This document shows positions 11,925-12,862 of a DNA stretch of 43,035 nucleotides, piece after piece (position 1 is the stretch's first letter; each line of letters starts with the position of its first letter). The stretch comes from a virus. Its lineage: Duplodnaviria; Heunggongvirae; Uroviricota; Caudoviricetes. The DNA lies in the IMG/VR virus record IMGVR_UViG_2541047789_000007, positions 1-43,035 of that record; one strand, 5' to 3'. Under the pieces are notes generated by a model that did no database searches, was not told the origin of the DNA, and was given only the letters and a program-made list of their open reading frames with translations. The position numbers were made by a program, and so were the translations under genes.

Positions 11925-12862
11925 CCCCTGAATCCTGCCGGGATCTGGCTGTAGTCCACGTTGTCGTAACTGGCTTTGAAGTACGGGTCTTCGCGTTTTT
12001 CGGTGTACGTGCTGACGGACGGCGATAAGCGCAGGGAAAGCTCATCCCATTTTTCCCGCAGCTTCGACGGGCTGAGCACGTTACGGCACCAGAACGGATC
12101 GCGGCTGACGCGGCTGTACATCTCGCAGATTTGTTTGTGAGTACGACCATCCTGCACACACATCAGGCGAATTTCGTTTGCCCAGGCTGTCCAGTTCGGT
12201 TCTTTGGGACGAACCACCTCGCCGTCACATTCGGCGGCCTGCTCGTACAGGGCGATGATTTTTTTCCAGAGCCACTGTGCGCAGGTCAAATCATCCTGCG
12301 TTCCCCACTGGCGCTTTTTAGGGCTGAATACAACCGCATCAGGATGGCGAGTTAAAAACTCCTGTTCAGCCGTCTGCGTGTCCGGTTGCGAAGCGTCCGG
12401 ACGAGAAGTTTTTTTATCTGACGGATCATGTTTTGATTTTACTGACGGATCCCCGCCAGATTCTGACGGGTGAAAACCCGCTTTTTTGCCAGATTTCGAC
12501 GCATCAAATTTTGACGGGTCAGATTTTGATGCGTCAGATTTTGACGGGTCAGAATCTGACAATTGAGAAAATGCCGCTGCCTGAAGCTTCGCAACGTTAA
12601 GCTGATAAACATTCGACGCATTGCGGTTACCCTGGCGACGCGCCTTACGCGTTAACCAGCCTTCTGCTTCCAGCCGTGCGATAGCCGTTCTGACGGTACT
12701 CATCCCCGCGCCAATCTGACGGGCAATAGTTTCAATTGATGGCCAGCACACACCTTCGTCATTACTGAAATCAGCCAGGCGGGCCATAATTGCCACGCTG
12801 GATAATTTCATGCCTGACGCAGCGCAACCATCCCATACATAGCCGGTTAATTTAGTGCTCAT
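11921..12862 (-). CDS. Replication initiation protein (O-like, N-terminal winged-helix, internal iteron-encoded linker)
   Basis: 313 aa; HTH N-terminus, repetitive SDPSKSDASKSDPSKFDASKS linker encoded by DNA direct repeats, conserved C-terminal domain; position after cro/cII-like. Confidence 0.65.
   Translation of the reverse strand: MSTKLTGYVWDGCAASGMKLSSVAIMARLADFSNDEGVCWPSIETIARQIGAGMSTVRTAIARLEAEGWLTRKARRQGNRNASNVYQLNVAKLQAAAFSQLSDSDPSKSDASKSDPSKFDASKSGKKAGFHPSESGGDPSVKSKHDPSDKKTSRPDASQPDTQTAEQEFLTRHPDAVVFSPKKRQWGTQDDLTCAQWLWKKIIALYEQAAECDGEVVRPKEPNWTAWANEIRLMCVQDGRTHKQICEMYSRVSRDPFWCRNVLSPSKLREKWDELSLRLSPSVSTYTEKREDPYFKASYDNVDYSQIPAGFRG
12410..12575. repeat. Direct-repeat iteron array inside replication gene (candidate ori)
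   Basis: Several tandem 15-18 bp units of the form TCAGATTTTGACGGG / TCAGATTTTGATGCG / CCAGATTCTGACGGG. Confidence 0.6.

Follow-up and report, generated by a model that had tools for sequence, protein, structure and literature searches.

A candidate replication origin inside the initiator gene of SfIV-like lambdoid prophages

Here we describe a candidate replication origin in a 43,035-base stretch of viral DNA (IMG/VR record IMGVR_UViG_2541047789_000007, analysed over its full length and referred to as the window), which is a lambdoid prophage of the SfIV/SfII/CPS-53 type. An O-like replication initiator gene on the minus strand contains an array of short repeats, and our analysis indicates that the segment 12404-12560 (~157 base pairs, bp) is probably the replication origin of this SfIV-like prophage, located inside the gene for its own initiator. 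We infer origin activity from comparison: the array is under purifying selection among relatives, it co-segregates with the initiator's N-terminal domain, and it has the position and polarity of the lambda and P22 origins. The design, an origin within an initiator gene, is familiar; this is a new example of it, with a different DNA-binding domain and different repeat units. A sequence-only reading of the window had already proposed a lambda-like origin arrangement for these repeats, a proposal that is supported by their position, by synonymous constraint, by co-variation with the N-terminal domain and by an adjoining A-rich 40-mer.

Structure of the repeat array

Tandem Repeats Finder (TRF) detects an array at 12490-12553, with either a period of 15 (4.3 copies, 81% matches) or a period of 30 (2.1 copies, 88%), and this is the sole tandem array scoring at least 50 in the window. 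On the coding (minus) strand the repeat unit is a 13-bp palindrome, GTCA-RAWTY-TGAC, which is present in six copies with at most two mismatches. The relatives used for comparison are 69 distinct genes with an N-terminal domain of the same type as in the window (70-100% amino acid (aa) identity, from many Enterobacterales genera), together with phage phiNP. The features of the candidate origin and its gene are as follows.

11921-12862, minus strand: replication initiator gene, O-like, 313 aa, a 942-nucleotide (nt) open reading frame (ORF) from the ORF list
12488-12560: iteron array I, in which five 13-bp palindromes recur every 15 bp exactly (copies at 12548-12560, 12533-12545, 12518-12530, 12503-12515 and 12488-12500), from TRF, the motif scan, and the unit count and logo over the 69 genes
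12455-12467: sixth palindromic iteron, coding strand GTCAGAATCTGGC, its consensus ACCCGTCAGAATCTGG nearly invariant in the 69 loci, synonymous sites included
12442-12451 and 12418-12427: array II, two GATCCGTCAG copies of the core, 24 bp apart (direct repeat D7)
12404-12443: candidate DNA-unwinding element, its coding strand A-rich, promoter-distal to the iterons, from nearest-neighbour free energy (dG)

The array occupies nt 302-445 of the initiator ORF, the part that encodes a Ser/Asp/Lys-rich linker, SDSDPSKSDASKSDPSKFDASKS...GGDPSVKSKHDPSD (also SDPSKSDASKSDPSKFDASKS...GGDPSVKSKHDPSD). Successive copies are spaced by 15, 15, 15, 15, 33, 21 and 24, and because every spacing is a multiple of 3 all copies are read in one frame. 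The sixth iteron is the best-conserved copy in the family, and each copy in array II holds a Dam site (GATC at 12448 and 12424), with A-tracts interleaved. The 11-mer TCARAATYTGA, with at most one mismatch, matches 13 times in the window against 5.2 ± 2.6 expected, a count that none of 100 shuffles reached, and nine of these 13 matches fall within the 104 bp from 12456 to 12559. The sequence-only reading had noticed at least five or six direct repeats at 12410-12575, encoding a Ser/Asp/Lys-rich linker in the middle of an O-like gene; TRF and the motif scan resolve them into six palindromes and two copies of the core, translation of the ORF agrees with the linker, and the repeats hold up when relatives are aligned. 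Additional copies of TCTGACGG at 12686, 12712 and 12978 were attributed to chance, as their codons are not conserved among relatives and the count of the motif outside the array is as expected. A CRISPR-like short array was ruled out by the 15-nt period, the lack of spacers and the location within coding sequence.

Constraint on the DNA of the array

In the D-x-S units of the linker, 361 of the 395 Ser codons (91%) are TCA, compared with 16% of those elsewhere in the same 69 genes. As a control for shared phylogeny, the amino-acid-invariant columns of the N-terminal domain have a mean major-codon fraction of 0.50, with values of 0.37-0.79 for Ser columns. Alignment of the segment anchored on the conserved GGDPS gave the consensus TTTTgACCCGtCAGAATCTGGnGGgGATCCGTCAGTAAatTCA, and the synonymous positions of its codons, TTT-GAC-CCG-TCA-GAA-TCT-GGN-GGG-GAT-CCG-TCA-GTA, are essentially frozen in the 69 loci (Phe TTT 67/67, Glu GAA 60/60, Asp GAT 69/69, Val GTA 68/68, Ser TCA 59/59 and 64/64), those of array II, GAT-CCG-TCA-GTA, being invariant in the family (GAT 69/69, GTA 68/68, TCA 59/59). 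Free variation is confined to the third positions of two Gly codons, which lie in the spacer between two copies of the motif, so the conservation is motif-shaped. Pairwise synonymous codon identity is 0.90 in this 19-codon (57-nt) segment and 0.44 in the adjacent N-terminal domain, the best 19-codon window of which reaches 0.49. Since synonymous sites are nearly frozen in the repeats compared with the N-terminal domain, the constraint is on the nucleic acid and not on the peptide, and on this codon-level evidence the array is under purifying selection as DNA. The 250-nt linkers contain 339 matches to the palindromic 13-mer (at most two mismatches) and the remaining 46 kb of these genes a single one; the unit spacing is 15 nt in 218 of 270 cases, and the copy number ranges from 1 to 8 among relatives.

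Nucleotide identity of this kind might instead reflect the recent horizontal spread of a short recombination joint at a module boundary, without selection on sites. A mosaic junction between the N- and C-terminal parts of the gene does lie just downstream (~12368-12403), and the lambda record marks recombination points just after its AT-rich region. We nevertheless give this explanation only a slight chance, given that the conservation is motif-shaped, with the third positions of the two spacer Gly codons free while the codons that flank them in the 57-nt segment are invariant, that both flanks of the segment have diverged (nt identity in the N-terminal domain is 0.73) and that the same codon bias recurs in every repeat unit.

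Conservation might also act on the transcript, either through a hairpin in the initiator mRNA that governs how the message is translated or how stable it is, or through an antisense RNA. Folding of the 176-nt RNA of the coding strand gives -54.2 kcal/mol, with z = -5.4 relative to shuffles, and a terminator-like hairpin is present on the antisense strand at 12467-12480. A strong fold is, however, an automatic consequence of tandem palindromes, and a copy number of 1-8 leaves no single conserved hairpin among relatives. Moreover, the conserved bases do not covary but are invariant, neither strand has a promoter-like site, Rfam gives no match, and both the GATC conservation and the symmetric TCA-N5-TGA logo are what is typically seen at duplex DNA sites to which dimers bind, so that an RNA element appears very unlikely. 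The antisense hairpin itself (CGGGTGAAAACCCG followed by CTTTTTTG, plus strand) lies between iterons 5 and 6, and the family consensus shows no obvious conservation of its stem.

The repeats follow the initiator's N-terminal domain

The initiator matches the profile phrog_391, 'replication initiation O-like', over its full length (E = 1.6e-135, aa 1-313, profile positions 1-298 of 298) and is built from two modules.

12578-12862, minus strand: N-terminal winged-helix domain, aa 1-95 (Pfam PF13730 HTH_36 at aa 23-70, E = 4e-11)
12032-12319, minus strand: C-terminal domain, aa 182-277 (BLASTP match to lambda O aa 187-270, E = 1e-25)
12368-12403, minus strand: mosaic junction between the module of N-terminal domain plus repeats and the C-terminal module, encoding SRPDASQPDTQTA, SRPDASQPDTQ

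Besides HTH_36, the N-terminal domain has weaker matches to GntR, MarR and DnaD_N, and the C-terminal domain has in common with lambda O the blocks WGT..DLT.A.W, WAN.IRLM..DGR and FW..NVLSP.KLR.KW. The junction was placed from two phages that match complementary parts of the locus, mEp460_4F5 only at 11921-12417 and phiNP only at 12384-12861, and from the junction peptide, which is common to both classes of N-terminal domain.

An N-terminal domain of the window type is always paired with the 15-nt array, in phiNP, in the 69 genome loci, in phiP27 L17 and in Kp4866-6. In phiNP this N-terminal domain (83% nt identity) and the 15-nt array are combined with a different C-terminal domain (PF09524). 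The reciprocal case is mEp460_4F5, the C-terminal domain of which is almost identical to that of the window while the N-terminal domain is unrelated; at the equivalent place it carries 5-6 units of 23-24 nt built on a GGTCAAARTG core, and then three 12-mers within an A-rich stretch; the 23-nt period is out of frame, which rules this array out as a peptide repeat. In SfV orf39 both the N-terminal domain and the array are of a third type, the array having ~5 GTGCA..TTCAC units of 21-24 nt. Among 80 viral contigs that share the C-terminal domain only two classes of N-terminal domain were found, the window type and the mEp460_4F5 type, with the junction just past the array. In the more distant homologs phiP27 L17 and Kp4866-6 (45% and 42% identity in the N-terminal domain, respectively), the core of the DNA repeat is kept (TGAACCGTCAAAATC; TCAAAATTTGAGGCC; GATCCGTCATTA) and the peptide is changed (SEPSK, SKFEG).

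This co-segregation of repeats and N-terminal domain is the pattern expected if the initiator's own N-terminal domain binds the repeats, and the winged helix-turn-helix (wHTH) domain is the presumed iteron binder. The product of the DUF4222 gene, which always lies upstream of the initiator, was considered as a repeat-specific binder and ruled out, because a 97% identical gene sits 5' of a type-B initiator with different repeats. The same two-part layout is present in the sister initiators (L002 2995-3030 and 3034-3167; L003 2900-2947 and 2950-3054): the 23-24-nt units of mEp460_4F5 are followed by its three 12-mers, which are TACAGAGAATA-like and preceded by a GATC, and the GTGCA..TTCAC units of SfV by GAACCAGTCAA 12-mers. 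The arrays in the initiator genes of mEp460_4F5 and SfV are probably their origins too.

The repeats might also be no more than a low-complexity, slippage-prone peptide linker, (SDxSK)n, that joins the two domains and has no function as DNA. The copies are indeed all in frame, the Ser/Asp/Lys-rich peptide is probably flexible, and copy number varies as slippage would give. Against this stand the synonymous identity of the repeats and their use of TCA for Ser, the distant homologs that alter the peptide and retain the DNA core, and the out-of-frame period of the equivalent array in genes of the mEp460_4F5 type, and we regard a purely peptide-level explanation as extremely improbable.

An A-rich stretch with conserved GATC sites adjoins the iterons

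A nearest-neighbour scan identifies 12404-12443 as the least stable 40-mer of the initiator gene (dG -46.2 kcal/mol, 72.5% AT). It overlaps the last two repeat copies, and the same scan of lambda O picks out the canonical AT-rich region (-43.0 kcal/mol, 77.5% AT). Over the 69 loci, AT content peaks at 0.70 (A 0.49) in the A-rich stretch, compared with 0.48 gene-wide. The sequence-only reading had pointed to an AT-rich unwinding element as a check on its proposal; such an element does adjoin the iterons, although it is modest, ranking at the window's 90th percentile.

The two GATC sites, 24 bp apart, are kept in 69/69 and 60/69 genes, which corresponds to 41 per kb compared with 2.9 per kb elsewhere. 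The melting regions of oriC and P1 oriR carry GATC sites, and the GATC-bearing A-rich stretch described here resembles them. No DnaA box (TTATNCACA, at most one mismatch) was found within the initiator gene, the nearest being at 13219. In relatives, adenine methyltransferase genes of the Dam-like NPPY or the MT-A70-like DPPW type are often located directly 3' of the initiator or very near it (L001 1229-2110, L003 1357-2010, L164 4046-4999, and also L010, L039 and L057). There is no adenine methyltransferase gene in the window or in SfIV, in agreement with the published account of SfIV (PMC3851460). The methyltransferase genes near the initiators of relatives and the invariant GATC pair are hints of a methylation-linked control of initiation.

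Comparison with known origins

In lambdoid phages the origin lies in the central part of gene O and comprises iterons and an AT-rich region, the number of iterons varying from four in lambda to six in the Shiga toxin (Stx) phages 933W and P27 (PMC7466680). The 'P27' O protein of that study is lambda-type, and it is unrelated to phiP27 L17 in record AJ298298. In the lambda record, four iterons of 18 bp are annotated at nt 349-433 of O and the AT-rich region comes after them. The system in the window is similar in several respects: the candidate origin lies within the initiator gene, straight after the N-terminal DNA-binding domain and before the C-terminal domain; there are several iterons, which have internal dyad symmetry and at the same time encode a linker peptide; the number of iterons differs between relatives and is comparable with that in lambda and the Stx phages; an easily melted stretch, A-rich on the coding strand in both, lies downstream of the iterons; and the gene is part of an early-right operon, after cro and cII, with a homologous C-terminal domain. 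The architecture of the lambda origin is thus present in its position within the gene, in at least four iterons with dyad symmetry and in a downstream AT-rich region.

In contrast, the N-terminal domain is HTH_36 here and Phage_rep_O (PF04492/TIGR01610; PF04492 E = 6e-36) in lambda O. The iterons are 13-bp GTCARAWTYTGAC units at a strict 15-bp period, whereas those of lambda are 18-bp ATCCCTCAAAACGAGGGA units at 20-24 bp, so that the spacing is ~1.4 helical turns as opposed to ~2. The AT-rich stretch is weaker than in lambda (72.5% compared with 77.5% AT) and contains two further repeat copies and the conserved GATC sites, and no P gene lies 3' of the initiator. With respect to the lambda O family, homology of the C-terminal domain is found, but neither the PF04492/TIGR01610 N-terminal domain nor an adjoining P or helicase gene. 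Because the family of the N-terminal domain and the iteron sequence differ and there is no P gene, this system is analogous to the lambda origin and does not, strictly speaking, belong to the lambda O/ori-lambda family.

The rep_origin annotated in P22 gene 18 (nt 353-497) occupies almost the same relative position as nt 302-458 of the initiator gene described here, and it likewise has tandem repeats followed by an A-rich stretch. The N-terminal domain of gp18 is, however, lambda-type (PF04492, E = 7e-38), the protein has no significant similarity to that of the window (E = 0.54), and directly downstream P22 has a gene of its own for a DnaB-like helicase (gene 12), which the window phage lacks. 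SfV orf39 and mEp460_4F5 resemble the window in gene position, in the two-part plan, with a main array and then short repeats of 12 nt within an A-rich stretch, and in the C-terminal tail ...DYSQIPAGFRG, which mEp460_4F5 combines with the same C-terminal domain, but they have other N-terminal domains and, correspondingly, other repeat units. In theta-plasmid iteron origins (pSC101, R6K, P1 oriR), a wHTH initiator binds tandem direct repeats beside an AT-rich region. These three elements recur in the window, although the units here are shorter and palindromic and the array lies within coding sequence. The window protein has no Rep_3-type initiator match in Pfam, and no DnaA box lies within or near the array. 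In a search for plasmids with this module as replicon, the matches were prophages in large replicons or phage-sized circles.

Specific binding sites need not be an origin, and the repeats could be regulatory, serving autoregulation, an early-operon roadblock, copy-number control by handcuffing or a Dam/SeqA switch, with the origin located elsewhere. Any function as a specific binding site would account equally for the DNA-level constraint and the co-variation with the N-terminal domain, the conserved GATC pair suggests methylation-dependent control, and the AT-rich element is weak. On the other hand, the 43-kb window contains no other repeat cluster or origin-like element, there is no competing internal promoter or Rfam family, and no alternative origin is known or visible, whereas the position, polarity and two-part plan of the array match the mapped origins of lambda and P22. 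A purely regulatory function therefore seems unlikely, and as origin iterons commonly serve control too, it overlaps largely with the function as an origin that we favour.

No phage helicase loader accompanies the initiator

The C-terminal domain of lambda O is the domain that interacts with P. Searches of the window by tblastn with lambda P, phiP27 DnaC and the phiP27 helicase found no homolog (best E = 0.19), and the annotation of SfIV, a viable phage, contains no P, DnaC or DnaB gene.

The initiator ends in a C-terminal tail, ...VDYSQIPAGFRG (11924-11959, aa 302-313), with the consensus IPxGFR[GS], which is present in 44 of the 69 genes and also on initiators with three unrelated types of C-terminal domain (loci including L001, L002, L003 and L164). 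phiP27 L17, which has DnaC- and DnaB-like genes 3' of it, lacks this tail. The tail could be a short motif for docking to a host protein. We considered the tail as a substitute for a loader and found this unsupported, as there is no simple inverse relation between tail and downstream loader: a homolog of lambda P or DnaC lies 3' of the initiator in 0/42 tail-bearing genes and in 2/25 tail-less genes, and seven other tail-less genes that were sampled are followed by methyltransferase, PerC-like, KilA-N or unidentified ORFs, not by loaders.

Distribution and gene neighbourhood of the initiator

The initiator gene has 99.6% nt identity with gp41 of Shigella phage SfIV, of which it is the equivalent, and it is related to yfdO of the Escherichia coli K-12 prophage CPS-53. 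Of 5,426 complete E. coli genomes, 2,725 contain DNA similar to 11921-12862, one such region being CPS-53 (yfdO/yfdN). Copies of the CPS-53 type (E. coli K-12-type records H43/H44) match only query nt 1-709, equivalent to 11921-12629 of the window; they keep the C-terminal domain and the entire repeat array and lack most of the N-terminal DNA-binding domain. Judged by this alignment, the CPS-53-type copy is a defective initiator that retains the candidate origin. Homologs with 82-88% aa identity also occur in records of Vagococcus sp. (L013), Chryseobacterium sp. (L035) and Martelella alba (L040), which is more suggestive of contaminated assemblies or mislabelled records than of a true host range.

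Upstream of the initiator and on the same strand are cro-like, CII-like and DUF4222 genes, with a cI-like repressor gene divergent from them, and downstream are PerC-like, LexA DNA-binding-domain-like, RusA and KilA-N genes. The region directly 5' contains two overlapping minus-strand ORFs in different frames (12852-13073 and 12872-13210) that are annotated differently in public records. RefSeq calls the 73-aa ORF, DUF4222 (Pfam E = 4e-18), which overlaps the start of the initiator by 11 nt, whereas phage records call the 112-aa ORF (PHROG 1170, SfIV gp40). In a tblastn search of 86 loci the 73-aa ORF was found in 69 and the 112-aa ORF in 39, and in phiNP a homolog of the N-terminal half of the 112-aa ORF sits elsewhere. 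On the 3' side, also on the minus strand, are genes for a 164-aa PerC-family protein with an additional wHTH-like N-terminal half (11430-11924) and for a 119-aa protein that consists of a LexA DNA-binding domain without the S24 peptidase domain (11104-11463).

A model for initiation and its implications

We propose that the initiator would be made from the early-right operon (cro, cII-like, DUF4222, initiator) and that dimers of its N-terminal wHTH domain would bind both to the six palindromic iterons of 13 bp, which have the core TCA-N5-TGA and a 15-bp period, and to the two GATCCGTCAG copies. The resulting nucleoprotein complex would destabilise the adjoining A-rich stretch at 12404-12443 with its two conserved Dam sites, and the lambda-O-like C-terminal domain would then bring in the host replicative helicase, with no phage homolog of P, DnaC or DnaB taking part. 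Binding by the N-terminal domain, unwinding of the A-rich stretch and recruitment of the helicase are all steps that we infer.

Several points weigh against the assignment of 12404-12560 as the origin. Strong conservation indicates a function at the DNA or RNA level, and replication initiation is not thereby established; as all copies with this type of N-terminal domain are in frame and encode DPS/DAS, the peptide could add constraint of its own. The A-rich element is short and moderate, ~10% of the 40-mers of the window being equally or more unstable. By geometry, a 15-bp period (~1.4 helical turns) would put neighbouring sites on nearly opposite faces of the DNA. Neither a helicase nor a loader is encoded for what is a key step of the lambda pathway. 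Finally, the literature searched, including the SfIV genome paper, holds no description of an origin for this type of initiator and no experimental evidence of one.

A more speculative possibility, which we regard as doubtful, is that these phages form a distinct lambdoid origin-initiator class that works without a phage helicase loader. In such a class the HTH_36 initiator would coat the abutting 13-bp palindromes, at 15 bp or ~1.4 turns, in a filament-like complex and not a wrapped O-some, would melt the GATC-bearing A-rich element under Dam/SeqA control, and would recruit host DnaB-DnaC directly through the lambda-O-like C-terminal domain or the ...IPxGFRG tail.

The candidate identified here would provide a precise origin for a very common type of prophage: its initiator gene occurs in roughly half of 5,426 complete E. 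coli genomes, in the serotype-converting Shigella phages SfII and SfIV and in relatives throughout the Enterobacterales. It raises the question of how host helicase is loaded by a lambda-O-like C-terminal domain when no P is encoded. The freezing of synonymous sites explains the conserved appearance of the 'linker' peptide and calls for caution when this region is recoded or truncated in phage engineering. These genes also show the presumed origin-binding domain and its iterons moving together as a single mosaic unit, with the lambda-O-like C-terminal domain exchanged on its own.

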